The position numbers were made by a program, and so were the translations under genes. 64,000 nucleotides of DNA from Candidatus Acidiferrum sp. (GTDB lineage: Bacteria > Verrucomicrobiota > Verrucomicrobiia > Limisphaerales > UBA8199): NCBI GenBank assembly GCA_035566435.1, contig DATMRF010000117.1, positions 127,052 through 191,051 on the forward strand, in the 5' to 3' direction. The notes under the pieces are model-generated. The model did not search any database, was not told the DNA's origin, and saw only the letters and a program-made list of their open reading frames with translations. Positions within the stretch are counted from its first letter, which is position 1, and every line of letters begins with the position of its first letter. Shown piece by piece: positions 3,607-64,000 of the stretch.

Positions 3607-3630
3607 CAGGACGCTGCCGCGTTGGCTCAA

Positions 3631-3665
3631 GGTTGCAGGGTTCAAGTTGCAGGTTGCCGGTTGGG
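3631..3665. repeat. GTTGCAGGTTG-type short tandem repeats in the PilX 5' region; the same family in reverse orientation sits at 42141-42177
   Basis: ggttgcagggttcaagttgcaggttgccggttgg here, versus caacctgcaacctgcaactttcaacctgcaac at 42141-42177. Confidence 0.6.
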
Positions 3666-4501: not shown

Positions 4502-5022
4502 GGCTGCGCCCCCCAAATATAGTTTTGCAGACCGTAGCGGGCCACCTGGGTTTGCATTTGGCGGCTGTGAGCGACGGGCGAGCCCGAGCCATAACTATTG
4601 GTCCACAAAAGGGTGACGGTGACGAGGCACATGTTGGAATTGTACGAGCAGGTCGAGGGAACATTGGTCGCAGCGCCCACCGACACGGTACCGCCGTACA
4701 CCACGCCGGCAGTGCCATTGGTAGCGCTGAACGGATCGTACTGTTCCTGGAAGGTTACATTGGTCAGTTGATCCCAGCGGCAGAGGCGAGTGGCCTCGGC
4801 TTTCTGCATGAGAATCTGAGTGGCCCGGAGGTCCTCGCGCGAGGTCTGCACAACGGCAAAGCCAGAGGAAAGCGCGGCAAAGAAGGCGCCGGCGATAACC
4901 GCCAGGATGACGACGGCAAAAAGAACCTCCGCCAGGGTGTAGGCGAGAGTCTCTCGACCAGTTTGTCTCTGTGCTGGGCCTTTCCGGTTCATAGCCGCCG
5001 GGCGGGTCCGAACCCGCCGCAT
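4498..5022 (-). CDS. Prepilin-type N-terminal domain protein (pseudopilin, GspH/FimT-like size)
   Basis: Table ORF. N-terminus ...RETLA|YTLAEVLFAVVILAVIAGAFFAAL. It is the first gene of the minus-strand module; the start may be the internal Met at 4992. Confidence 0.6.
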   Translation of the reverse strand: MRRVRTRPAAMNRKGPAQRQTGRETLAYTLAEVLFAVVILAVIAGAFFAALSSGFAVVQTSREDLRATQILMQKAEATRLCRWDQLTNVTFQEQYDPFSATNGTAGVVYGGTVSVGAATNVPSTCSYNSNMCLVTVTLLWTNSYGSGSPVAHSRQMQTQVARYGLQNYIWGAQP

Positions 5023-5386
5023 CTTCCAAGAGCAAGATCGCTACCAGTTTTCATATGAATGAGAAGTAGCCAGTTTTAAGCCAAATCCAAGGCTGGCGCT
5101 AAATCCACGGCCGAGTCATTACGGGTGGATCACTCGTACTTATACGGAGGGTGTGTCCAGTTCCGGATCAGGAAGCCAACAAAGAACCGCGATTCACGCA
5201 TGGTTGGCTGCCTGCGGTTGCATTCAAGTTGCGACAAACGGTATCGATTCAAACAGCCTTTCTGCGAACGAGTTCATATCGCTTTACCGTGAGGTTTTGG
5301 CGCGGGAGTTGCTCCGCATTGTATGAGAACAAGACATGGTAGTGAGTAAGCTTGGTTTGCACACGCGCAAGCCGGAGCCGTTAGGC
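5023..5386. promoter_or_regulatory. Shared divergent promoter region between the two mirror-image pseudopilin modules
   Basis: A 364-bp, locally AT-richer gap separating the divergently oriented first genes (4498..5022 minus and 5387..5854 plus). GGAG lies 11 bp upstream of the ATG at 5387. Confidence 0.5.
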
Positions 5387-5854
5387 ATGAACATGAAACC
5401 GGCAAGAGACAGCGCAGGAAAGCCAAGAGGTCGTCCTGCGGCAGGAATGACGCTGACCGAGGTGGTCGTGGCTCTTGCTATCTCCGGGTTGACGGTGGCC
5501 GCCATCGTCAGCGGCTATGTGTTCAGCACGGGTTTCGCGGAGGAGTCAGCGCTGTCCCTGGCGGCCAGCGCGAAGGCCATGGAGCGCATCGAAGAGGCCC
5601 GCAGCGCGACGTGGGACACGTCGAGCTGGCCGCCGGTGGACCAGCTCGTGGCGACAAACTTTCCGGATAAAACCGTCACGTTGGACCTATCGGGGTCGGG
5701 CACGGGGGCGACCTACGCCACGAATATTACCCAGATCTCGCAAATCTCCACCAATCCGCCGCTCAAGCGGATTCGCGTCGATTGCGTATGGTGTTTCCGG
5801 GGCTCTCGGTTGCTGACCAACACTATTGAGACCTGCCGCGCGCCTGACCAATGA
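5387..5854 (+). CDS. Prepilin-type N-terminal domain protein (pseudopilin)
   Basis: Table ORF 5336..5854, trimmed to the Met at 5387: MNMKPARDSAGKPRGRPAAG|MTLTEVVVALAISGLTVAAIVSGY. This is a canonical G|MTLTE prepilin leader. Confidence 0.65.
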   Translation: MNMKPARDSAGKPRGRPAAGMTLTEVVVALAISGLTVAAIVSGYVFSTGFAEESALSLAASAKAMERIEEARSATWDTSSWPPVDQLVATNFPDKTVTLDLSGSGTGATYATNITQISQISTNPPLKRIRVDCVWCFRGSRLLTNTIETCRAPDQ

Positions 5855-6459
5855 AGCTGCAAGCCACTTTTCCAAGTCGGGGTTTGAGCGTGCCGGCAAA
5901 CTCTCAATCCGCGTTTACCCTGCCGGAAATGCTCATCTCCGCGACGCTTTTCCTGATGCTGGTCTCCGGGGTGGTTGGCGCCCATCTGTTTGGATTGAGG
6001 ATGTCTCAACTCACTCAAACGAAGCTCAATACCAGCGACGCCGCGCGCAAAACGGCCGGGCGAATGGCGGATGAAATCCGGAACTGCAGAATCACCCGCG
6101 TCGGTTCCGTTTCGAACGGTGTGTTTGTGGCGCTGCTCGATGGGGAAACGCAGACCGGCAGCGCGCTGCTGATCAATCCGACGACCAATACCGCCAACTT
6201 CATCCTGTATTTTCTAAACAGCTCCGACCAGAGCTTCCGTCGAACCACCAGCGCGGCAGGGAGCACTACCGTGCTGGCCCAGGGGGTCACTAACAGCGTG
6301 GTCTTTCGCGCCCAGGATTGCCTGGGCAACATCCTGACCAACAACCAGAACAACCGCGTCATCCACCTGGACCTCGAGTTCTTCCAGGCACAGTCCCAGC
6401 TCCCCACGCCTGATTATTACAAACTCGAAACCTCAGTGACGAAACGGAGCCTGGAATGA
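5851..6459 (+). CDS. Prepilin-type N-terminal domain protein (pseudopilin)
   Basis: Table ORF. ...SQSA|FTLPEMLISATLFLMLVSGVV. There is a 4-bp ATGA overlap with the upstream gene. Confidence 0.65.
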   Translation: MKLQATFPSRGLSVPANSQSAFTLPEMLISATLFLMLVSGVVGAHLFGLRMSQLTQTKLNTSDAARKTAGRMADEIRNCRITRVGSVSNGVFVALLDGETQTGSALLINPTTNTANFILYFLNSSDQSFRRTTSAAGSTTVLAQGVTNSVVFRAQDCLGNILTNNQNNRVIHLDLEFFQAQSQLPTPDYYKLETSVTKRSLE

Positions 6460-9866: not shown

Positions 9867-10037
9867 GGTTGGGTGACAAACGGGCTCGACGCAAAGTGCT
9901 CACAAATCGTTAGATTGGCCGCAAACCTGCTCGCTATCGCTCGCCTGCCCGCCCATGTGATTGCGCGCCGGCTGCTATGCCGTCATTTGACTAAGACACC
10001 GGCGCGCTAAACACCCGCGCCTCGCGAACAAGATGGG

Positions 10038-10448
10038 ATGAATCGGAAAAAAATATTGGTCGTGGATGATGACGCGGTCATCCTGAAGATACTTTCGATG
10101 AAGTTAAGGGGTGCCGGCTACGAAGTCCTGATGGCTGAGGATGGCGGTGCGGCGGTGGGCGCCGCCCGTAGGGAGAAGCCAGACGTCATATTGCTCGACA
10201 TTACTTTTCCGCCCGACATCGCAGGCGGCCCACCCTGGGACGGGTTTCTCATCCTGGCCTGGCTGCGCCGGTTGGAGGAGGCGAAGAATACGCCGGTGAT
10301 TATGATCAGCGGAGATGATTCTGCGGTGGCACAAAAAAGGGCATGGGCAGCCGGCGCGTTCGATTTCTGTCCCAAACCGCTCGATTGCCCAATGATTATT
10401 GAAGCGATCGAACGCGCGATTGGGCCGGCTATTCCAAAAGCCGCGTAG
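10038..10448 (+). CDS. Stand-alone CheY-like response regulator (REC only) with an atypical loop insertion
   Basis: Table ORF. KILVVDDDAVILK...VILLDITFPPDIAGGPPWDGF...IMISGDD...PKP. DD, the phospho-Asp, Ser/Thr and Lys are all present, but the usual MPxxDG loop is replaced by TFPPDIAGGPPWDG. Confidence 0.7.
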   Translation: MNRKKILVVDDDAVILKILSMKLRGAGYEVLMAEDGGAAVGAARREKPDVILLDITFPPDIAGGPPWDGFLILAWLRRLEEAKNTPVIMISGDDSAVAQKRAWAAGAFDFCPKPLDCPMIIEAIERAIGPAIPKAA

Positions 10449-10467
10449 CCATATCTATTCAGGGGAG

Positions 10468-10505
10468 ACCGTTAACGCAAAGACGCAAAGGAGCAAAGCC
10501 GCAAA
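10468..10505. repeat. Solo copy of the (NCGCAAAG)n element TTAACGCAAAGACGCAAAGGAGCAAAGCCGCAAAGG
   Basis: It matches the left arm of the element at 16461-16635 and lies directly downstream of the cheY-like gene. Confidence 0.65.
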
Positions 10506-10509
10506 GGGG

Positions 10510-11649
10510 TTAGTGTGACGAAGCTCCGGCGAGGCTTTCATCATAGTGAATGCCCGCTGACCCGCTGAGGATAATTGTATCGGCCATGAACGCGCCACAT
10601 GCGTCGGCAGTGCCGCTAAAGGTAACGGCGGCCTCGGGCGCGTCCACCACACCGTAGAGCGTGGAGGTTCCGCTCAAAGTCATCCTGGTGCAGGTTGGGA
10701 GCCCGAAGATGAAGCAATTAGCTGCGCGCTGGCTGTCATTGATAATGCCCCGGCCGGAGACCGTGAGACTTCCCGCAACGAAAATCTGCAGGCTTGCTCC
10801 GGGTGCGATATAGACAAAACCGTTGCCGCTGGTGGCGAAGTCGCCGGTGACGTACAGGACAGCATTTCCCGTGACGGCCATGGCGTCTGCACCGGAAAGT
10901 TGGACGGCAGGCAGCTCGTAATTGCCGGAGCCGAGGACAAAGGTGTAATTCTGCCCGGCGAAGCTTCCGTCAGCAGGGAGGGAAGCCCCAGAGGTGAAGG
11001 GGACCTGGATGTCTTGAAATGAAAGGCCGGCGTCAGTGGTGGCATGTCCAGGTTGAATGCCGAATTGGCTGGCATTCCAAGCAAGGTCGCCGACCCCTCC
11101 CTTGCCGCAGATGATGGTGCCTCCGGCCCCGGTCGCCGCCATTCCGTAGATGTGGGCGGTACGGAGAGTGATGGCGCCCGCGGCTTGGGAGGCCGTCTGC
11201 GCGAGGGCGTGGTCGCGGCGTTTGGCCGGGTCGTAAAGTCCGCCCGTGCTAAGGGCCGGATCGCTGGAGTCAAAGCTATCGAGATAAGCGCCACCGTTGA
11301 AACGAATCTGGTTCCTGGCCATCAATCCGCCGGAAGCGTTGAACTGCGCGAGCCTGAAAAAGCGGCTGGTCTCACCTTGCGCGCAGGGACGTGAGCAAGA
11401 AAAAAAGCCGCGGGCGTCGGGGATCGCCGTGGTAACGGTTGACCAGACCGGGGCCTGAATATCGGTTGCAGTTTGCAGCAGGAACGGTTGCGCCGGCGCG
11501 CCGGCGCAATCAAGGCGGACCATTTGGTCAGCCGGCCGGCTGATGGAAAGAAGCGGCTGATTTTGCTGATTGCTGGCGAGAGCATCGCCCAACGAGCCCA
11601 GACTGAGGCTGGAGCACACCAAAGCTGCCAAGAAATTCCTTCTCATCAT
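10510..11649 (-). CDS. Secreted protein with an N-terminal FYR-motif beta-sandwich domain and a C-terminal domain homologous to the PilX-like protein 2392..3606
   Basis: Table ORF 10510..11709, trimmed to MMRRNFLAALVCSSLSLGSLGDALA, a Sec signal peptide. An AAGGAA ribosome-binding site lies upstream of the ATG at 11649. The N-terminal domain ends ...GETSRFFRLAQF. The C-terminal ...ANCFIFGLPTCTRMTLSGTSTLYGVVDAPEAAVTFSG...IHYDESL aligns with ...QNFFYFGLPGVTSITYAGTSSFVGCIYAPEADLTLNG...HYDFHFDEAL of the PilX-like protein. Confidence 0.6.
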   Translation of the reverse strand: MMRRNFLAALVCSSLSLGSLGDALASNQQNQPLLSISRPADQMVRLDCAGAPAQPFLLQTATDIQAPVWSTVTTAIPDARGFFSCSRPCAQGETSRFFRLAQFNASGGLMARNQIRFNGGAYLDSFDSSDPALSTGGLYDPAKRRDHALAQTASQAAGAITLRTAHIYGMAATGAGGTIICGKGGVGDLAWNASQFGIQPGHATTDAGLSFQDIQVPFTSGASLPADGSFAGQNYTFVLGSGNYELPAVQLSGADAMAVTGNAVLYVTGDFATSGNGFVYIAPGASLQIFVAGSLTVSGRGIINDSQRAANCFIFGLPTCTRMTLSGTSTLYGVVDAPEAAVTFSGTADACGAFMADTIILSGSAGIHYDESLAGASSH

Positions 11650-11811
11650 ACGTCGTTCCTTTTCATTACTGTCATGGCTCAACTTTAGGGCGCGACGGGT
11701 TTTCAACAATCGGGGCCGGGCCGGATCATGGTCCCGGGATGAGGAAGGAATGGCGCCCGGGGGAATCCCGGGTTAACACGAACGGGTAAAGGAACGGAGA
11801 GGTGGAGGGAG

Positions 11812-11880
11812 GGGGTGGTGGAGTGATGGATTAGTGGATTAGTGGATTGGTGGGGCCGGATCGATTACGAGAACGAGGAC
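11812..11880. repeat. Microsatellites: (GTGGATTAG) x 3 followed by (GAGGAC/G) x 5
   Basis: gatggattagtggattagtggattggtgg ... gaggacgaggacgaggacgaggacgaggg, located upstream of tRNA-Leu. Confidence 0.75.
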
Positions 11881-12003
11881 GAGGACGAGGACGAGGGTGA
11901 AAACGCTTGGAGTGATGGAGGGACGAGTTACCGCCGGCCAAAGGCGCTTGCGCCGGGCGGCGGGCGTTTGTATGTTGCGGGCGCATCACCTGGTTCGCCG
12001 GGC

Positions 12004-12090
12004 GCCGATGTGGCGGAATTGGCAGACGCGCTAGACTCAAAATCTGGTACTCGTAAGAGTGTGTGGGTTCGACCCCCTCCATCGGCACCA
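12004..12090 (+). tRNA. tRNA-Leu (anticodon CAA)
   Basis: GCCGATG acceptor stem pairing with CATCGGC, then ACCA. D-arm TGGCGGAATTGGCAGACGCG is close to bacterial tRNA-Leu. Anticodon loop CTCAAAA. The long variable arm TACTCGTAAGAGTGT marks it as a class II tRNA. T-arm GGGTTCGACCCC. Confidence 0.85.
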
Positions 12091-12207
12091 ACCAAAAACC
12101 CGAATGGGTCTAAATTCTGCAAAGGCCGCTGAATTTGAATCTGAAAACGAATCTGGCTGGTTGCCGCTACCTTGAATCCCGATGGAATTTACTCCATACT
12201 GGCGCGG

Positions 12208-13296
12208 ATGAATGCCAAACAAAGTTATCCCCTCGGCGAGCGCTTGCTGCTTGGTGCAACATTGATGGGAGCGTTGTCCTGTTCAATCGCGGCGCAGGGC
12301 CAAGCTGATACGGCCAAACCGGGCTCGCAGGAGTCCATTCCCGTCCTGCCGCTGGAACAATCGGCGAGTCGCGGCATTACCACTCGGGATCCTTCCAGCA
12401 TTGTGAAATGCAAAGATGAATACTGGGTATTCTACACGGGCCGGGGCGTGCCTTCGTATCGTTCCGGGGACCTGGTGAAATGGGAACGCGGGCCGGCGGT
12501 ATTCAAAGCTGCACCGGAATGGATTGCCAAGATCGTTCCACAAAACCGCAACATGCAATGTTGGGCTCCCGACATCATCAAGCTGGGTGACCGGTATCTC
12601 CTTTATTATTCAGTTTCGTCGATGGGGAAAATGACCTCGGCCATCGGCCTCGCAACCAATCCCACTTTGGACCCGGACGATCCGGCCTGTCATTGGACCG
12701 ATCAAGGGTTCGTGGTGCGGACGCAGGACGGCGACGGTTACAATGCCATTGACCCGTCCGTGTTTCACGACCGCGATGGAAGCCTGTGGTTGACGTTCGG
12801 CTCTTATTGGTCCGGCATCAAACTGATTCAGCTGGATCCGCAGACCGGCAAACGAATGGCCCCAGATTCGAAGCTGTTTTCTATCGCTTACAATGAGTCA
12901 ATCGAAGCTTCGTATTTGTGCCGGCATGGCGACGATTACTATCTGTTTGTGAACTGGGGTAGCTGTTGTCGGGGCCCGAAGAGCACCTACAATATTCGCA
13001 TCGGGCGGAGCAAATCCGTCACTGGACCATATCTGGACAAGGCCGGTGTGGACATGCTGCACAGCGGCGGCAGTCTGTTTCTGGCGACGACCAACGGTCC
13101 ATTGATCGGCCCGGGACATGCCGGGACTTTGAACGCGCAGGGAAAGGATTGGTTCACGTCGGACTTCGAGGGTGACCTTCGGATGGATGGAAAAGCCACC
13201 CTGGCAATAATGCCGCTGCGTTGGAATGCGGACGGCTGGCCTGAGGCGACGGTGAATGATGTGAAGGGTGTTCGGTCCCCTCAACACATGCGTTAA
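12208..13296 (+). CDS. Glycoside hydrolase family 43 (endo-arabinanase-like)
   Basis: Table ORF 12172..13296, trimmed to the Met at 12208, giving a signal-like N-terminus. GH43 hallmarks: RDPS..WVFYTG, WAPDI, GDRYLLYYS, AIDPSVF, WGSCCRG. The last ~140 bp overlap the convergent AbrB-like ORF. Confidence 0.75.
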   Translation: MNAKQSYPLGERLLLGATLMGALSCSIAAQGQADTAKPGSQESIPVLPLEQSASRGITTRDPSSIVKCKDEYWVFYTGRGVPSYRSGDLVKWERGPAVFKAAPEWIAKIVPQNRNMQCWAPDIIKLGDRYLLYYSVSSMGKMTSAIGLATNPTLDPDDPACHWTDQGFVVRTQDGDGYNAIDPSVFHDRDGSLWLTFGSYWSGIKLIQLDPQTGKRMAPDSKLFSIAYNESIEASYLCRHGDDYYLFVNWGSCCRGPKSTYNIRIGRSKSVTGPYLDKAGVDMLHSGGSLFLATTNGPLIGPGHAGTLNAQGKDWFTSDFEGDLRMDGKATLAIMPLRWNADGWPEATVNDVKGVRSPQHMR

Positions 13297-42055: not shown

Positions 42056-42140
42056 CGCGGAACTTGGTCTGAATCCGAGTAAAATTCGGCAGAAAAACTT
42101 TCTCACATGATCGGGTTTCGAGTGAACCGTACCTCGAATC

Positions 42141-42177
42141 ATCCAACCTGCAACCTGCAACTTTCAACCTGCAACAG
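42141..42177. repeat. CAACCTGCAAC tandem repeats (reverse orientation of the 3631-3665 family)
   Basis: atccaacctgcaacctgcaactttcaacctgcaac. Confidence 0.6.
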
Positions 42178-42236
42178 ACATAACGCGTTCGTTCAAAGCT
42201 TGCCTCAACGTCGGCGCTAATAGGGGTCGGTGATAA

Positions 42237-42638
42237 CTATTGACATTTTTCATCTTCTTTGCGCTTTTGCACCAAGCAGTTTGACACGTGCTTCCATGCG
42301 CCCATGTTAAGCCGACGGGCGATCCATTTCAATGTCATCGTGGTGCGGGCGCGCAACTGGCAAGCGATCTCGACCTTCTCCGGGTCGCCTTTGCGCCGGC
42401 AGTTGAGCTCCGCTTCCGCCCAGCCTCGCCGGCGTAATTCCTCCTTTACGACGCGCTCGGCATGTAACAGGTCGGCGTCGCGCAACTCGGGTCCATAGGG
42501 GTCGGCGCGGCGCTCGTGCATCTGCGCCAACAGTTCCTCTTTGAACGCCTTGTCTCCCGGAAACCAGCCTCGTTCCACGGCTTTCCAGTCAGCCGGGAAA
42601 CGGGTCGAACCGTAGATTGGAACTGGAGTCGTGCGCAT
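42237..42638 (-). pseudogene. C-terminal fragment of a long Y1 (RAYT-like) transposase with a DnaA-C-like HTH tail
   Basis: Table ORF of 133 aa. ...RRKGDPEKVEIACQLRARTTMTLKWIARRLNMGAWKHVSNCL matches the remembered C-terminal extension of Planctomycetes/Verrucomicrobia COG1943 transposase-like proteins. No in-frame N-terminal HUH domain lies upstream; the adjacent frames are junk. Confidence 0.4.
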
Positions 42639-42940
42639 GGCGCCGTTTCCATTGCGGGTTTCTCACGGGGATGCACCCAATGATATGCATCCCCAAGCTC
42701 GCCGTCCGCTACCAGCCCAGGAAGGCAGTTTTTGCGACCCTTCGTGCCCTTTTGTGGCTAAACATTTTCTCCCCGCCGTCCAACCCCGCCCCTCGCCCCT
42801 CGACTCTCGACCATTCCTGACTATTCCACGCAGGATACTTTGGGATGCTTTTGCGACACTTTTGGGACGCTTTGAAAATGCAAAAACCTGGGTAAATAGG
42901 CCCTTGGGACGCCGGGACGCTTCGTTTACCCCCTCGCCGC

Positions 42941-43920
42941 ACGCGAAAGAATCACGACCGCCCGGCAACCCTGTCACCCTCAAGGCCAAAGGTTGCCACA
43001 AACCTTACCGGCGACCGGCTCGCTTCTTGCCAACCCTTGCCCGCGACTCGAGACTTGAGACCTGTCACCGTTTGTCACCGTTTGTCACCGCTGGAAACGC
43101 ACAGATCCATCGGTAAACACGGGCTTGTCACCGTGTCACCGCTGTTTTACCCCCCTTCAGCACACATTACTTTTTACACCCTCCCTCCGCGTACCTGGGT
43201 CGGCCGGCCCGGTATCCGCCACTCACAGTCAGTATCACCTAACCTTCAGGGATCAGCCCTTGCCAACCCTCATGGATCATCCTTGTCAACCTCAAGGATC
43301 AGCCTTTGGCAACCCCTGAAACGCGCAATCACTCGGTAAATACGGCGGGTGGAAACGTTTCCACCCATGGATCACCCCTGGATCACCCCCTGGCGCGAAA
43401 GAAAGAATCACGACTGCCCAGCGACCCTGTCACCCTACAACACCAAAGAAAGCTCACCGGCGACCCGCTCAATCCGTGTAATCCGTGTAATCCGTGGTCC
43501 AAACCTCCTTTGTCACACTGTCACACCCTGTCACGCGCAGCCGGCTATTCTCCACCTTCCCTCCCTCCCTTTCCGCGTGTTCCGTGTATTCCGCGGTTCA
43601 TTGACGCTCCTGTCACGGGTTTGTCGCGGCTTTGTCCCGGATTTGTCCCGGATTTGTCACGGCTCAAAAACCGCTAAAATTTCCCAGCAAATACCGCGTT
43701 GTCACGGTGTCACGGGTCAAAACCACCCCCCTGCGCGCACAACACCATCGCCGTCCCCAGAGCCTCACCCTTCCGCCATTCCCGGCTGGCGTCTTCCCCG
43801 GTCCAGCGACACTCCTGTCACACCTTGTCACGGTTCAAAGCGTGACAGGGTGAGCCTTGTCACGCTTTCAAAAGTGAAAATCCCTCGTCAAACACGGCCT
43901 TGTCACGGTGTCACGCTTTG
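42941..43920. repeat. Array of about 20 same-strand TGTCAC hexamers (often as 8-10 bp spaced doublets) plus an ~80-bp direct repeat (42941-43020 vs 43392-43475), 10-12-bp tandem duplications and palindromes; ORF-free
   Basis: Read directly; see the finding at 42640-44810. The 190-aa ORF 43349..43921 is a repeat translation (CHGVT recurring) and is not called. Confidence 0.8.
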
Positions 43921-44826
43921 AAAGCTCTCCACCCCACCCTCGCCGGAGAAAATAAAATTTATCCTTCAGCCTTTAGCCTTCCCATCCCAACTGCCGATAG
44001 CTCCCGCTGGCCTGTCCCCGCATCCGCACCTATCTGCAGCCATCTGCAGTCATCTGCAGCCATGTGCATAGTGAAAGTCTTCCCCACCCCGTCTGCACTC
44101 GATTACGCTTAATTTCAGCTACGGACGCCCAATTACGGGAAATTCCTCCAGGGCCGAACTGCAGTTTTCGCCTTTCTGCCCGCGCCCGCCTTCGTGCTCT
44201 GCCCCTGTCAACTGTCAACTTTCCAAAGTTGACACAATCGTTCTTCTCAACTTCGACCAACCGCGGCCAACCGCGGCCAACCGCGCGCTTCCCGGTCAAA
44301 GTTCAGCCCACATCGATATCACCTAATAACACTTTATATCAGTTACTAACACCTACTACCGCGTACTAACACTTCCCGCATTTTGCCACGAACTGTTATT
44401 CGCTCCCCGCACCCAGCCCGATCATCACTTTGTGCCTTCTTGTCGTTATTCGGTCCTCGTCCGTGCCATCCGTGTCATCCGTAGTTCAACACCTCCCCGC
44501 TCAAGTTCGCTCTCGCAAAAACTCGACCAATCTCGACTAATCTTGAGTAATCTCGACCAAAATTAATTTCCCCCTTTCAGGGACTTCGGACGTTGGCCTT
44601 TCGACCTAGCGGGCAAACCGACGTTTTCTCTGGGAAAAAGCGGACCTGACCCTGCTGGGACGACGTGAACGTGTACTACGTCTTGGGCACATTGGTCGTC
44701 AGAACAGGGCCGATCAGACGAACCCCGGCCTGCAGACGCCCCGGTTTCGGAACGTTCAGTTTTAGGTTGAAATTCTTCGCTGACAGTGGATATTAGTAGA
44801 GGTATAAGAGCAGATTGGGTGATTTT

Positions 44827-45150: not shown

Positions 45151-45377
45151 CGCCGGGTCCGAAGTCCGTTCAGTTTGTGCAAACATTGGCGGGCGTGGCT
45201 ATTGCCGCGCCAGTCGAGTTCTTAATTTGGGTCACGGGTCCCCGTCCGCTGGCGCGAATAGGGTTAAAGACTCCTTCCGCCTCCCTTCCTTCCGTGAACC
45301 CCATCGAGCCCGCGGTTCGGAACCGCCGCAGACGTTTTTCCATTTGAACTTGCAATCCTGGACCTTAGCCTGTCCGG

Positions 45378-46403
45378 GTGAATCAGAACGTGCCGAGCGT
45401 CACGGTGTTGATCGCCGCCCGCCCGGGCCAGGCGGAGGTTAAGGCCGTTGACGCCAGCCGTGCGCTGGATTATCCGGCCGACAAACTGGAAATCATTGTG
45501 GCCCGGGGCAAACAGCCCTCGGCCCAGCGCAACGCCGCGCTGAAAGCCGCGCGCGGAGAACTCACCTACTTTCTCGACGATGATTCCTTGCCGGAGGCTG
45601 CAAATCTGCGGCGAGCCATCGCACACTTCAGCAGGCCGGAGGTCAAAATGGTCGGCGGCCCGAATGTCTGCCCGCCGGCGGCGCCCGAGCTGGAGCAAGT
45701 CTTTGCGCTAGTGTTAGGAAGCTGGCTGGCACTCGGGCCGAGCCGCGCACGGTACACACCGGTGGGACAGGTCCGCGAGACCAGCGAGAAGGAATTGATT
45801 CTGTGCAACCTGGTCGCGCGCCGGGACGCGATGCTGGAGTTAGGGGGGTTCAACGAAGCACTCTATCCCAACGAAGAAAATGCCTTGATGGACGAGCTGC
45901 AGAAGCGCGGGGGCAAGCTCGTTTATGACCCGGCGTTTGTGGTGCATCGGCGGCCCCGTCCAAATCTCGCGGCGTTTGCCAGGATGCTGATGACTTATGG
46001 GCGTGGCCGGGCGGAGCAATTCAGGCTGCACCCCACTCCCGGGTCGGCGCTCAACTTTGTCCCGCCGCTCTTTCTGGTTTACCTGGTGTCGTTGGTTGCC
46101 GTGCCCTGGGTCGGGACGATTCTTTTGGTCCCCCTCGGGGTGTACGGCTTGGCGGTGTTGACGCAGGCGGCGGTCCTGAGAGTCTCAAGTCCCAAGTCTC
46201 AAGTCCCAGGTTCGCACTCCACGGTCCAAAGTCCACCTACGAGTACAGGGCAACAAGTATTTCGGCGCGTTGCGGTGATTCCGCTGATCTGTCTGACTCA
46301 TGTGCTCTATGGTGCGGGGTTCTGGCGAGGCTTGTTCACGAGGCTGGGCACCGGTGCGCAGCCGCCGCCGCCGGCAGTGGTCCTTGAGACTGTCGCGCGG
46401 TGA
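45378..46403 (+). CDS. Family 2 glycosyltransferase (GT2) with a C-terminal membrane region; contains an in-frame repeat-element insertion
   Basis: Table ORF. VTVLIAARPGQAEVKAV... DYPADKLEIIVARG...QRNAALKAARGELTYFLDDDSLPE shows the GT2 DxD. The C-terminal TM helices are interrupted by the S/P/Q-rich segment LRVSSPKSQVPGSHSTVQSPPTSTGQQ, encoded by the dispersed repeat at 46176-46255. Confidence 0.65.
   Translation: MNQNVPSVTVLIAARPGQAEVKAVDASRALDYPADKLEIIVARGKQPSAQRNAALKAARGELTYFLDDDSLPEAANLRRAIAHFSRPEVKMVGGPNVCPPAAPELEQVFALVLGSWLALGPSRARYTPVGQVRETSEKELILCNLVARRDAMLELGGFNEALYPNEENALMDELQKRGGKLVYDPAFVVHRRPRPNLAAFARMLMTYGRGRAEQFRLHPTPGSALNFVPPLFLVYLVSLVAVPWVGTILLVPLGVYGLAVLTQAAVLRVSSPKSQVPGSHSTVQSPPTSTGQQVFRRVAVIPLICLTHVLYGAGFWRGLFTRLGTGAQPPPPAVVLETVAR
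46176..46255. repeat. Dispersed (AGTCTCAAGTCCCAG)n-CACGGTCCAAAGTCCAC element, copy located inside the GT2 CDS (in-frame)
   Basis: gagtctcaagtcccaagtctcaagtcccaggttcgcactccacggtccaaagtccacctacgag. The same family occurs at 1878-1928, 48086-48175 and 51828-51890. Confidence 0.75.
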
Positions 46404-49400
46404 AGACGCCGCTCTGGACAAACGCCATCAAGAGCTGCGCTGATCCGCAGCGGGCTGGACATTTTCTGGACCTGCTGGCAAGCACACCTGCCCGCGAAGC
46501 ACTAACGTCCTTTTCGCCTGAACAGGCGGGCATCCTGGCTGCCTTATTCAGCGGCTCGCAGGCGCTCAGCAACACCCTCGTCACCCACCCTGATTGGCTC
46601 GCGATTTTTGAGCCTGAACGTCTGAAATTCGCCCGACGCAAGCAGGGGTTGCAACAGGAGGTAAGTCGCGCCCTGCAGCCGCTCCTCCAGCAACGCGATT
46701 ACGCTGCGGCGTTGGCGCGAGTGCGCGAGTTCAAGCAACGCGAGATGCTGCGCATCGGCGCCCGGGACCTCGCCCGCTTGGGGCGGCTGCCGGAAATTTT
46801 GCTGGAGCTTTCCGATGTGGCTGAGGTTTCCCTCGACGGGGTTTGGCGGGTCTGCCATTCGCAATTGACCGAGCGTTATGGCCGGCCCTACCACCAGGAT
46901 GCGTCCGGCCGCTGGCGCAAAACCTCGGCTTGCGTGCTCGGGATGGGCAAACTAGGCGGGCAGGAACTCAACTACAGCTCGGATGTCGATCTCCTGCTGG
47001 TCTATAGCGAGGAGGGGGAGGTTTACGCTCACGAGCCCCCGGCAATGGAGGCGGAAAAGGGCGGCCGCGGACGGAAGCGTGCGCACTCCGATGCGCCACG
47101 GCCCGTGCTGGCGAACCACCAGTTTTTCAAACGGCTCGCAGAAGCCTTCATCGCGGAAGTGACACGCCTGGCGCCGGAAGGGGCGCTTTACCGGATCGAT
47201 TTCAGGCTGCGGCCCGAAGGCGAGGGCGGACCGCTGAGCCGTTCGCTCGCCAGTTACGAGAACTACTACGCCCAATGGGGTCAGACCTGGGAGCGAATGA
47301 TGCTGATCAAGGCCCGCGGCGTTGCCGGCGATGAAATGCTGGCGGCGGAGTTTCTCGAGATGGTCCAGCCTTTTAGGTACCCTCGTTCGATCAATGACGG
47401 CGTCCTGGGTGAGGTCGGGGCGATGAAAGACCGGATTGAAAACGAGGTGGTCAAGGCCGGCGAACTTGAGCGGAACGTGAAACTCGGGCGCGGCGGCATC
47501 CGGGAAATCGAGTTTATCGCGCAATCCGTGCAGTTGCTGCACGCCGGCAGGCAGCCGTTCCTACAGGGAGCTCAGACGCTGCCCTGTCTGGAAAAGCTCG
47601 TGCAGTACGAGCTCTTGTCCGCTGTGGACTCGCGCCTGCTGCGGGACGCCTACGTGTTCCTCCGCGAGGTCGAGCACCGCCTCCAAATGGAGGATAACCG
47701 GCAGACCCACACAATCCCGGCCAACCGGCCGGCCCAGGAACGGCTCGCGCGCCTGCTCGGGTTCAGCCATGCCCGCGAGTTCGAATCGGCGCGCCAGGAA
47801 CACACTGTCAACGTCCGCCGCATCTTCGATGAACAGCTCAAGGCCGAAGTCCCCCAACTCAGCGCCGGGTCGCCTTTCCCGCGCCATTTCGAAGGTGCCG
47901 AGGCCGAGTGGAAGCGGCTCCTTGCTGACCACGCTTTCAAGGACGTGGACAAGGCCTTTCGTGTGCTGCGGGAGTTCGTCGAAGGTCCCGGTTTCGTGCA
48001 TGTGTCGCCGCGCACCAGCGAGCTGGCCTTTCAGTTGTTGCCGAAGTTTTTTGCTCTGTGCCCTCACGAAGGTGCTTGCGAAGCACGTCCAAAGTCCCAG
48101 GTCTCAAGTCCCAGGTCTCAAGCTTCAGGTCTCAAGTCCCGGGCTCAAGGTCCAGGGTCTGCCCACGCAAACGGGGCAGCGAGAGCGCCGCTTTCCGATC
48201 CCGACCGCGTGGTGACACGGCTGGACAATTTTATCGGCGCGTATGGGGCACGGGCGACGCTCTTTGAGTTGTGGGCGCACAACCCGGCGATTTTTGAACT
48301 GTTGGTGCTGCTGTTCGACCGTTCGGAATTCCTCGCCGAGCTCTCCATCCGCACGCCGGATCTTGTGGATGAATTGGTTGCCAGCGGCCGTTTGCGCCAG
48401 CGGAAAACCGCGGAGGAAACCCTGCGCGATTTGCGGCATGGGGTGCGCGATGCAGACCAACACCTTTGGCTGCGCCGGTATCACCAGGCCGAGCTCATGC
48501 GCATCGGCTTGCGGGACATCCTCGGCCTGGCGGATTTCGAACAATACCTGACCGAGCTGTCCGCCCTTGCCGATGCTTGCCTGCAGTACGCGCTCGAAGT
48601 GGTGTTGCGCAAACACCGCCTCAAGGCACCACCTTTTGCCATCATCGGCCTCGGCAAATTGGGCGGCGCGGAAATCGATTACGGGTCGGACCTGGACATC
48701 GTGTTCGTGGCGGACGCTAAGGCGAAAAACCTGACGCGACTTTCACGGTTGGCCCTGGAGGTGATGGAGTTGGTCTCGCGCCGGACGGAGCAAGGTCTGG
48801 TCTTTCATACCGACGCGCGGCTGCGGCCGGACGGCGAAAAGGGCCTGCTCGTCAATACGCTGAAGGCTTATAAGGATTATTATCGGCACCGTGCCCACCT
48901 TTGGGAAATCCAGACTCTCACGCGCACGCGCCCCGTGGCTGGCGACCTGGTGGTGGGGCAGCAATTCCAAAACCTGGCGGCCGCGTTGACGAACTTTGCC
49001 GCTCCGAGCCTGCCGCTGGCGGCCTACTCGCCCGATTGGAAGCAGAAGATCCATCAGATGCGCCTGCGCATCGAGAAGGAACGCACCCGGCGCAGCCAGG
49101 ATGAGCTGGCCATCAAGACCGGCTCCGGGGGCTTGATGGACGCTGAATTTGTCGCACAGTCGCTGTGCATGGAGTACGGCTGGCAGGAGGCCAACACGAT
49201 GAGGGCGCTGGAAAAAGGGCGCGACGCTGCGGTCCTTCCCGGCGCGGACAAACTCATCCGCCATTATCGCGAACTCCGGCGTGTCGAGGGTATCCTGCGG
49301 CGCTGGAGCTACGAAGGTGAAACCGTGTTGCCCGACGACCCGGAGCCCTACTATCGCGTGTCAGTCCGGTGCGGTTTCGCAACACCCGGGGCGTTTCGCA

Positions 49401-49459
49401 AAGCGATAAGGGCCTGCCGAAAGGCGATTCGCGAGGTATATGCCAGCGTGTTTACTTAA
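46400..49459 (+). CDS. glnE: Bifunctional glutamine synthetase adenylyltransferase/adenylyl-removing enzyme
   Basis: Table ORF of 1019 aa. Two nucleotidyltransferase cores (GMGKLGGQELNYSSDVDLLLVY and GLGKLGGAEIDYGSDLDIVFV). There is a 4-bp overlap with the GT2 gene. The inter-domain linker contains a repeat-element insertion (...EARPKSQVSSPRSQASGLKSRAQGPGSAHA...). Confidence 0.85.
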   Translation: MKTPLWTNAIKSCADPQRAGHFLDLLASTPAREALTSFSPEQAGILAALFSGSQALSNTLVTHPDWLAIFEPERLKFARRKQGLQQEVSRALQPLLQQRDYAAALARVREFKQREMLRIGARDLARLGRLPEILLELSDVAEVSLDGVWRVCHSQLTERYGRPYHQDASGRWRKTSACVLGMGKLGGQELNYSSDVDLLLVYSEEGEVYAHEPPAMEAEKGGRGRKRAHSDAPRPVLANHQFFKRLAEAFIAEVTRLAPEGALYRIDFRLRPEGEGGPLSRSLASYENYYAQWGQTWERMMLIKARGVAGDEMLAAEFLEMVQPFRYPRSINDGVLGEVGAMKDRIENEVVKAGELERNVKLGRGGIREIEFIAQSVQLLHAGRQPFLQGAQTLPCLEKLVQYELLSAVDSRLLRDAYVFLREVEHRLQMEDNRQTHTIPANRPAQERLARLLGFSHAREFESARQEHTVNVRRIFDEQLKAEVPQLSAGSPFPRHFEGAEAEWKRLLADHAFKDVDKAFRVLREFVEGPGFVHVSPRTSELAFQLLPKFFALCPHEGACEARPKSQVSSPRSQASGLKSRAQGPGSAHANGAARAPLSDPDRVVTRLDNFIGAYGARATLFELWAHNPAIFELLVLLFDRSEFLAELSIRTPDLVDELVASGRLRQRKTAEETLRDLRHGVRDADQHLWLRRYHQAELMRIGLRDILGLADFEQYLTELSALADACLQYALEVVLRKHRLKAPPFAIIGLGKLGGAEIDYGSDLDIVFVADAKAKNLTRLSRLALEVMELVSRRTEQGLVFHTDARLRPDGEKGLLVNTLKAYKDYYRHRAHLWEIQTLTRTRPVAGDLVVGQQFQNLAAALTNFAAPSLPLAAYSPDWKQKIHQMRLRIEKERTRRSQDELAIKTGSGGLMDAEFVAQSLCMEYGWQEANTMRALEKGRDAAVLPGADKLIRHYRELRRVEGILRRWSYEGETVLPDDPEPYYRVSVRCGFATPGAFRKAIRACRKAIREVYASVFT
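48086..48175. repeat. Dispersed (AGTCTCAAGTCCCAG)n element, copy inside glnE (in-frame, in the linker between the two halves)
   Basis: cacgtccaaagtcccaggtctcaagtcccaggtctcaagcttcaggtctcaagtcccgggctcaaggtccagggtc. Confidence 0.75.
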
Positions 49460-63695: not shown

Positions 63696-64000
63696 CCGCC
63701 TGAATATTGAACCACCCGAATCCCGCACGCAATGTGTTTGATGTGAGGGATTACCGAGAGGCTAAAGTGCTCCGGCGCGGCAGACGACTTTGGGCCAAAC
63801 TACGCACCACGCTTCACGTTTCACGCATCACGAATCCCGCAGCCCGCATGACGTATCACGCATCACTCTTCCCCCTCCGTTCAATCGTTGTGCCTGACCT
63901 CCCGCGTTGGCAGACTCACCCCCTCATTGAAACACGCGCCCGATACTGAGCCATCGAGGTCGGAGGCCCGGCTGGGGATTATCCTCGGTGTCGGGGCGGT

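Follow-up and report, generated by a model that had tools for sequence, protein, structure and literature searches.

A degenerate heptanucleotide tandem array read in frame in the predicted tether between the two halves of a bacterial GlnE

Introduction

Tandem arrays of 7-nt units are the commonest class of long simple-sequence repeats (SSRs) in large genomes (Mrazek et al. 2007, as summarised in PMC4679880 and PMC4692102). According to the same papers, surveys of long SSRs place many arrays in intergenic DNA and some in inverted pairs, and units that are not a multiple of three are found less often than expected in coding sequence. Here we describe such an array inside glnE, the gene for the bifunctional glutamine synthetase adenylyltransferase/adenylyl-removing enzyme, at 48087-48160 on the plus strand of a 64-kb stretch of contig DATMRF010000117.1 (assembly GCA_035566435.1), the whole of which we call the window. 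It is translated in the segment that joins the two halves of GlnE, where it is probably tolerated as a passive spacer. The array resembles heptanucleotide long SSRs in its tandem 7-nt units, its several degenerate copies and its host, a large GC-rich free-living soil genome, and it has at least three head-to-tail 7-nt copies beyond chance. It differs from them in being translated, and in that 7-nt arrays recur at this one protein loop in 18 of 80 species.

Other described systems come close in different respects. Heptamers of the cyanobacterial short tandemly repeated repetitive (STRR) kind are said, to go by the title of a 1997 paper by Vioque, to lie inside the RNase P RNA gene. Like STRRs, the repeat of glnE belongs to a small set of heptamer families dispersed over many loci; its unit family forms arrays at many unrelated loci, and such an array can lie in a variable part of a working gene and leave it intact. 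It is not an STRR proper: its hosts are Verrucomicrobiota and Acidobacteriota and not heterocystous cyanobacteria, its unit is not a canonical STRR unit, and the array is read as protein instead of forming part of an RNA gene. The rotation CCCAAGT of AAGTCCC would be one base from STRR1, which we take to be CCCCAGT. Q-linkers in bacterial regulatory proteins, reportedly described by Wootton and Drummond in 1989 and by Jaggi and co-workers in 1997, are said to number two in Escherichia coli GlnE, presumably at residues 441-462 and 607-627. The segment studied here is likewise hydrophilic, unstructured and placed between functional modules of one enzyme. Rickettsia palindromic elements (RPEs) insert in frame into housekeeping genes at fold-compatible positions (PMC10969869). 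The likeness lies in selfish-looking repeat DNA that is read through as extra peptide at a fold-compatible position of unrelated housekeeping enzymes. However, RPEs are palindromic, about 150 bp long and fall into defined families, whereas the glnE array spans 74 nt, is built of tandem 7-nt units and shows neither a palindrome nor recognisable element ends. Finally, SSRs in coding regions can act as phase-variable contingency loci, such as the heptanucleotide repeats of Haemophilus (PMC8262952; PMC3315296). The glnE array shares with these a repeat whose unit is not a multiple of three within an open reading frame (ORF), so that a one-unit slip would cut the protein short; unlike them, it is degenerate, shows no length polymorphism or out-of-frame allele, and sits in a free-living host and in a cytoplasmic enzyme rather than a surface structure.

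Searches of one literature collection found no account of heptanucleotide repeats in Verrucomicrobia or Acidobacteria, and no description of 7-nt, frame-rotating translated arrays that recur at one loop across a bacterial order. The present case differs from RPEs, STRRs and long SSRs in that a tandem array whose unit is not divisible by three is translated in rotating frames, and in that arrays of the same period recur at one loop across an order.

Results

The array consists of about 10.5 units, GTCCAAA GTCCCAG GTCTCAA GTCCCAG GTCTCAA GCTTCAG GTCTCAA GTCCCGG GCTCAA (one base short) GGTCCAG GGTCT, with the 7-nt consensus CARGTCY. Alternation of units creates a 14-nt super-unit, AAGTCCC-AGGTCTC, and the same stretch can be counted as five 14-mers, one of them 13 nt long. 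Tandem Repeats Finder (TRF) reports 48092-48149 at period 14 (4.2 copies, 82% matches, score 81) and 48097-48156 at period 28 (score 92). An earlier note on this DNA, made from the sequence alone, had recognised a tandem repeat at this place but described it as about four copies of a 15-bp unit; TRF and the phase listings give periods of 7 and 14, and the 15-bp unit was rejected. Within the array, a perfect 14-mer duplication, AAGTCCCAGGTCTC, spans 48092-48119 on the plus strand (two zero-mismatch matches) and is its youngest-looking part. Only these first two 14-mers are identical, and later units are ever more degenerate. The best run at lag 7 or 14 has a score of 19; among 2000 codon shuffles of glnE the highest was 12, and none reached the observed value.

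The array is in frame within glnE and encodes RPKSQVSSPRSQASGLKSRAQGPGS (aa 563-587), the peptide that the earlier note had quoted correctly. The peptide has a 7-residue period, since 21 nt equal three units, and, as 7 is not divisible by 3, translation of each array passes through the three frames one after another. A remark that the frame differs from that of a related repeat in the gene upstream is thereby moot; both proteins contain VSSP(K/R)SQ. GC content at third codon positions (GC3) is 0.44 in the repeat versus 0.76 in the rest of glnE, and the repeat uses the rare codons TCA, AGT, AGG, TCT and CCA, each at no more than 5% of synonymous use. It is thus the DNA repeat, rather than adaptation of codons, that sets the sequence.

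We looked around the array for the marks of an inserted element. There is no inverted repeat flanking or spanning it, no terminal inverted repeats or palindromic body of the kind found in miniature inverted-repeat transposable elements, repetitive extragenic palindromic (REP) sequences or RPEs, and no antisense unit partner nearby. No RNA or DNA hairpin is predicted at the array (fold z = +0.3), and no recognisable element borders, target duplication or associated transposase were seen. Its edges fade gradually into unique sequence, and the three arrays of the family in the window have only repeat units in common. The description of the repeat as mobile therefore finds no footing here.

The gene that carries the array, glnE (46400-49459, plus strand, GTG start), encodes 1019 aa. 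Its product matches the NCBIfam equivalog NF008292 (PRK11072) over the full length with 565.4 bits, against a cutoff of 487, and has the Pfam domains GlnE and GlnD_UR_UTase. Matches to the solved E. coli fragments are strong for both the adenylyl-removing half, AT-N (PDB 1v4a, E=3.5e-63), and the adenylyltransferase half, AT-C (3k7d, E=1.3e-36). The N-terminal half (aa 1-483, 46400-47848) is homologous to AT-N, aligns to 1v4a residues 36-436, is modelled with confidence and holds the active-site motif GMGKLGGQELNYSSDVD at aa 181-197. The C-terminal half (aa 601-1019, 48200-49456) is homologous to AT-C, with 3k7d chain residues 78-427 corresponding to residues 606-935, and holds GLGKLGGAEIDYGSDLD at aa 750-766; both motifs follow the pattern G-x-GKLGG-x-E-(L/I)-x-Y-x-SD-(V/L)-D. 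The halves are mutually homologous (internal BLASTP E=6e-31). The sequence from aa 598, LSDPDRVVTRLD, directly after the repeat segment, aligns as SDPDRVVTRLD with ADPQRAGHFLD from aa 14 of the N-terminal half, which bears out the placement of the repeat between two nucleotidyltransferase halves.

An AlphaFold2 (AF2) model built from 120 orthologues has a mean predicted local distance difference test score (pLDDT) of 86.5. It predicts a three-helix module at aa 501-552 (47900-48055; helices 501-510, 516-528 and 537-552), followed by a tether at aa 553-600 (48056-48199), which lies between helix 537-552 and helix 601-615. The tether has no secondary structure in the model and pLDDT falls below 50 at aa 560-593; the repeat makes up about half of it. 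The NCBIfam profile alignment reaches residue 553 at profile position 515, and together with 3k7d it maps the tether to about E. coli residues 515-518. E. coli has only 2-3 residues at the place to which it maps, and an equivalent linker in that unrelated phylum is thus missing. As modelled and mapped, the segment with the repeat is a true inter-half tether of GlnE. The same mapping ruled out that the tether is E. coli Q-linker 1. The counterpart of that linker is presumably aa 484-500, a floppy stretch with no helix in the model (mean pLDDT of 56 in block 481-490). A second charged, low-confidence insertion relative to E. coli, EPPAMEAEKGGRGRKRAHSDAPRPV, occurs at aa 205-237 (47012-47110) inside the N-terminal nucleotidyltransferase domain, where block 221-230 has a mean pLDDT of 54.

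We compared 120 GlnE orthologues from Verrucomicrobiota at the protein level and, for 80 genomes that each represent one species, the DNA of the tether. Identity to the closest relatives is 69-75%, and the great majority of these bear a Verrucomicrobiota label (subdivision 3, Limisphaerales, Pedosphaera). The tether is hypervariable: it ranges from 11 to 70 aa (median 28.5) and cannot be aligned, while hardly any change is seen in ...LLPKLFALCP and LSDPDRVVTRLD on either side of it. Its composition favours P, S, T and G, with Q at 1.09x and E reduced to 0.47x. Q-linkers are interdomain stretches of 15-25 residues in which Q, R, E, S and P are frequent. The tether is unstructured in the model as they are, with the length range just given; its bias to P/S/T/G and not Q, its position and its origin in a DNA repeat differ from theirs. 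Every tether was in frame (82 of 82 loci), including those with perfect arrays.

A test for 7-aa periodicity in the 120 proteins was too insensitive, picking up 8 tethers while the rest of the protein showed conserved lag-7 coincidences, and a DNA-level test was used in its place, with an array counted when the lag-7 run score was at least 10. Eighteen of the 80 species loci have a 7-nt tandem array in the tether, and the units differ between species: CCACGCT x5 (L047), TCAAAAA x4 (L065), TCCGCAC x4 (L071) and AAAGTCC x3.3 (L050), as well as GTCAAAA, CGGCCAT, GACCTCC and others. These 18 arrays fall in 6.7 kb of tether (2.68/kb); the remainder of glnE has 10 in 246 kb (0.041/kb), and the flanks have 17 in 507 kb (0.034/kb). 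Only period 7 and its multiple 14 are enriched in the tether. The A+C-rich strand is the sense strand in 18 of 18 tether arrays (17 distinct orthologue arrays and the window's own, p = 7.6e-6), and this is the orientation that gives hydrophilic residues. The other 62 tethers have no lag-7 array above the threshold, and the enzyme is kept. Units in orthologous tethers differ by single-base steps; single-linkage clustering of the units at one mismatch or fewer chained nearly everything and was uninformative. In the nearest species (L001), a degenerate heptamer array (TCCGAAA CCCGAAA ... GCCAAAG TCCGGGC) occupies the same place in the tether, and it is plausibly homologous to the array of the window.

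Some tethers fold. Twelve of the 80 are prone to hairpins (z < -3), compared with 2 of 160 controls, and contain either sense-plus-antisense arrays or REP-like palindromes. In L016, L043, L044, L061 and L080 the tethers hold strongly folding REP-like palindromes (z = -3.9 to -8.8) with no lag-7 array, encoding peptides such as RTGVSPVS...GDRQDACPT. The tether of L082 (glnE at 10001-13105, P0033 clade) has a pair of similar, GC-rich units, hairpin-like and about 48 nt apart, GGGACGCG...CGCGTCCC, which encode GTRSTGSL and GTRWNASLP and are common to many 75%-identical orthologues; the palindromic GTRWNASLP insert has no second copy in its 23-kb locus. The glnE of L047, from an Amazon Verrucomicrobia metagenome-assembled genome (MAG), carries six separate in-frame heptamer arrays with different units at 4680-6022, in several loops and in the tether. 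Some of these lie about 376-415 residues before the tether, possibly in the same loop as the aa 205-237 insertion of the window.

The same repeat family occurs elsewhere in the window, as the earlier note had seen. The gene upstream, at 45378-46403 on the plus strand, encodes a family-2 glycosyltransferase (GT2; Pfam Glyco_tranf_2_3 and related families), with a homologue at 54 loci and synteny in related contigs. It has an in-frame array (AGTCTCA AGTCCCA x2) at 46181-46208, called by TRF at period 7/14 with 100% matches, 1.9 kb upstream of the glnE array. The array encodes RVSSPKSQVPGS in a loop between predicted membrane helices. This loop measures 30 aa in the window; most orthologues have 5-8 aa, and L001 has 12 aa, with AAAGTCC units. 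In L047, the C-terminal end of the upstream GT2 has an AGTCCAA x5.5 array. The GT2 and glnE arrays have an exact 16-mer in common, GTCTCAAGTCCCAGGT. A third array (GAAAGTC CAAGGTC AGAAGTT TCAAGTC TCAAGTC CCGAGTT) is intergenic, at 1888-1930 on the plus strand, with no long ORF across it; TRF reports AAGTCTC x2.7 at 1905-1923. With the glnE array, three arrays of the family lie in the 64-kb window.

Beyond the window, the exact 21-mer AAGTCCCAGGTCTCAAGTCCC of the glnE array was found in 51 metagenome contigs (L084-L134) with 41-67% GC, at unrelated loci. Together with the 16-mer, these matches make a coincidental likeness between the copies untenable. The contigs carry arrays of 4-17 units, and 15 of the 51 come from one sample (Ga0213876). 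Antisense units follow downstream of the array in 32 of the 51 and precede it in none, so that the sense arm always comes first. Several of the arrays are in frame in linkers or termini of enzymes, including the inter-domain linker of CoaBC, the N-region of FlhF, the C-end of ThrRS and loops of a CobN-like protein. One contig, L101, is acidobacterial by its IspG, which is 95% identical to an Acidobacteria-labelled protein and 85-88% identical to Pyrinomonadaceae proteins. With 51 contigs, varied loci and an acidobacterial member, the heptamer family is, as far as these sequence matches go, dispersed and phylum-crossing.

To assess constraint and length we turned to other assemblies of the same gene. 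An identical GlnE protein is encoded in a second, independent Joint Genome Institute (JGI) assembly. In a 98%-identical strain (L081) the array is equally long, with 6 substitutions within 48078-48172, 5 nonsynonymous and 1 synonymous, whereas elsewhere in glnE the ratio is 13 to 31 (Fisher p = 0.018). Taken with the codon use, these substitutions indicate that constraint on the tether is probably relaxed and that it may evolve nearly neutrally; the comparison of insert and flanks thus bears out a difference in constraint but not a domesticated linker. Among the three independent assemblies (two alleles, a very small sample) there is no difference in copy number, only point substitutions. No out-of-frame alleles were seen in these consensus assemblies, and a search of metagenome contigs with the exact 29-nt downstream flank for copy-number variants gave 0 matches. 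In simulations, slippage by +/-7 or +/-14 nt brings a stop at aa 603-625, while +/-21 nt (three units) keeps the frame. A variable number of units, as had been proposed, is accordingly not what the assemblies show, and only three-unit changes would keep the frame.

Discussion

We think it probable that this stretch of glnE is an in-frame, ageing array of a dispersed heptanucleotide family (AAGTCYC/AGGTCTC) that is tolerated as a passive spacer in a pre-existing disordered tether of GlnE. The array would have its origin in the DNA: a proto-repeat would have grown through replication slippage or unequal exchange or, alternatively, another array of the family, for instance that in GT2 1.9 kb upstream, would have seeded it. 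It would persist because all that the tether requires is an open frame with no stop, a hydrophilic character and sufficient length, and for the same reason we regard it as a passive flexible spacer rather than an evolved linker. Filtering at the protein level would then set the orientation, with the A+C-rich strand as sense, and would permit only net length changes in multiples of 3. The earlier interpretation is thus partly supported: an expanding repeat in the linker is borne out, but that it is mobile, domesticated or variable in length is not shown. Every orthologue already has an unstructured tether of some length, and the repeat fills a permissive, nearly neutral segment of it. The enzyme had also been called essential; to our knowledge GlnE is not generally so.

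Several results weigh against this reading. The density of arrays in the tether exceeds that in the flanks overall, and it remains several-fold higher even if all 17 flank arrays are placed in an assumed 10% intergenic fraction. Therefore, pure tolerance may be incomplete, and there may be a mutational or selective pull towards repeats in the tether. Few heptamer families recur at unrelated loci in two phyla, which random slippage does not predict and which hints at a family-specific spreading mechanism or function. The sense-plus-antisense arrays and REP-like hairpins in the tethers of other species suggest insertion of structured elements of an intergenic type, beyond local slippage. The constraint test, too, compares a single diverged strain, L081. 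This GlnE repeat is likely ordinary in its probable function as a spacer and unusual in its recurrence.

Other explanations have to be set against the passive spacer. The repeat could be a mobile or actively spreading element, akin to RPEs, for which the tether is one survivable landing site. The 51 contigs of varied GC and locus, at least one of them acidobacterial while the window is verrucomicrobial, the three family arrays within 64 kb, the hairpin-forming tethers of other species and the strict downstream placement of antisense units are all what such an element might leave. We nevertheless hold it unlikely: the array of the window shows no terminal inverted repeats, hairpin or antisense partner and no recognisable borders, target duplication or associated transposase, the single-base steps between orthologous units are consistent with mutation and re-amplification in situ, and L001 appears to share the array by descent. 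If instead the array were a contingency locus, slippage of one or two units would toggle between full-length GlnE and an N-terminal truncation with adenylyl-removing activity only, giving stochastic control of glutamine synthetase adenylylation. The simulated stops do fall just past the N-terminal half and the central module, a perfect 2 x 14-nt core is present, and heptanucleotide repeats drive phase variation in Haemophilus (PMC8262952). Yet the array is degenerate, at 82% matches, and slippage is therefore suppressed; three independent assemblies, including the 2%-diverged strain, agree in length and differ in point substitutions only; and all 82 orthologous tethers are in frame, perfect arrays included, with the proviso that minority alleles could hide in consensus assemblies. 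Such a switch is very improbable in our view.

A function at the level of nucleic acid, either slowing of ribosomes by rare codons at a domain boundary or heptamer sites for a single-strand-binding protein, would suit an array that is rich in rare codons and lies exactly at such a boundary. CspB binds heptamer repeats (PMC4679880), and CoaBC linkers of other soil bacteria encode a perfect 30-bp hairpin whose arms co-vary between species. In the window, however, the array forms no structure, the rare codons follow automatically from a 7-nt unit read in three frames, and the substitutions of L081 strike the repeat freely; 62 of 80 orthologues retain the enzyme with no threshold-level array in the tether. 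We give this explanation little chance. That the array is chance low-complexity sequence, or an artefact of a metagenome-assembled source in which repeats can be mis-assembled, can practically be dismissed: no shuffle of 2000 reached the observed run, the identical protein occurs in the second assembly and an allele of equal array length in the third, and 74 nt is shorter than a typical sequencing read.

Survival of a repeat so prone to shift the frame in a central enzyme of nitrogen regulation is possible because the tether is almost without sequence constraint. The passive spacer thereby shows a route from repeat DNA of a non-coding type to protein sequence, and makes inter-domain linkers a natural place to measure the birth, turnover and filtering of bacterial tandem repeats. 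It also raises the question why so few heptamer families are common to several phyla. For annotation, it is a caution against reading every low-complexity insert in a linker as a functional adaptation; the array accounts for the label "hypothetical" that this GlnE bears in one database. The record, HWW02131.1, is the GlnE of the source MAG and is named "hypothetical protein", and the MAG itself is labelled Candidatus Acidoferrum (Acidobacteriota). That label looks unreliable, nearly all close GlnE homologues being from Verrucomicrobiota, and several MAGs of the same SMAG series bear scattered, implausible taxon labels.

A wider, so far undescribed pattern can be entertained only tentatively, and we are inclined to doubt it: that a few heptamer families, common to at least Verrucomicrobiota and Acidobacteriota, settle or form anew time and again, in frame, in the linkers of multi-domain enzymes, of which GlnE and CoaBC would be two cases. 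The arrays would often consist of a sense arm, a loop and an antisense arm, with perfect complementarity kept between the arms as the unit changes from species to species. If true, it would point to a dedicated generating mechanism, such as hairpin-templated copying, or to selection on mRNA or DNA structure at domain boundaries.

The CoaC-CoaB linker was reached through one metagenome match. In about 120 CoaBC orthologues it almost always combines a heptamer array in sense orientation with an antisense one after a short loop; the peptides are, for example, VQSPKSKVQS-QENQT-LDFGLWTLDL or VESRESRVE-RENQT-LDSRLSTLDL. The DNA of three genomes (L135:1501-2778, L136:1501-2763 and L137:172-1434) and of the query contig L109 forms perfect or nearly perfect 30-bp stems with z = -5 to -12. 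Units vary between species (AAAGTCC, GAGAGTC, AATTCCA), with the arms staying complementary. The sense-first polarity of the metagenome arrays and the CoaBC stems suggest a generating mechanism or a selected structure, unlike the solo arrays of the window.

Other repeats and neighbouring genes

GT2 and glnE overlap by the sequence GTGA at 46400-46403, which holds the stop of the one and the start of the other and suggests that they are translationally coupled. The order GT2-glnE-SpoU methylase-metallo-beta-lactamase recurs in related contigs, and in L082 additional genes separate glnE from SpoU. Seven related species (L054, L010, L015, L023, L026, L029 and L033) have a TTGAACT array of about 2.5-6.5 copies just upstream of the GT2-glnE operon; that of L054, at 2952-2996, stops a few tens of bases short of the start of GT2. 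The equivalent place in the window, 45344-45351, has a single TTGAACTT.

The genome holds a library of short tandem-repeat families. About 2.4 kb at 42100-44600 is dense in varied short tandem repeats of period 7-23, with units including TGTCACCGTT, AATCCGTGT, TGTCACGGATT, CATCTGCAGC, CCAACCGCGG and CTCGACCAAT, and contains only short unsupported ORFs. Intergenic arrays at 813-974 and 1964-2041 have unrelated units (GGTTATCA/TCAGGTG, TTAGGTGCCG x5, ATCAGTA x5.7 and GAATTGA x2.9). Two arrays are at or just upstream of the 5' ends of minus-strand genes: AGGTTGC x4.9 (3630-3663, minus strand) precedes a DUF7305 pilin-like gene, and CAACCTG x4.6 (42144-42175, minus strand) is at the start of an FG-GAP/ASPIC-UnbV gene. 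Near the end of the window, 63802-63866 holds an ACGCATC-like heptamer array of about 9 copies with 74% matches.

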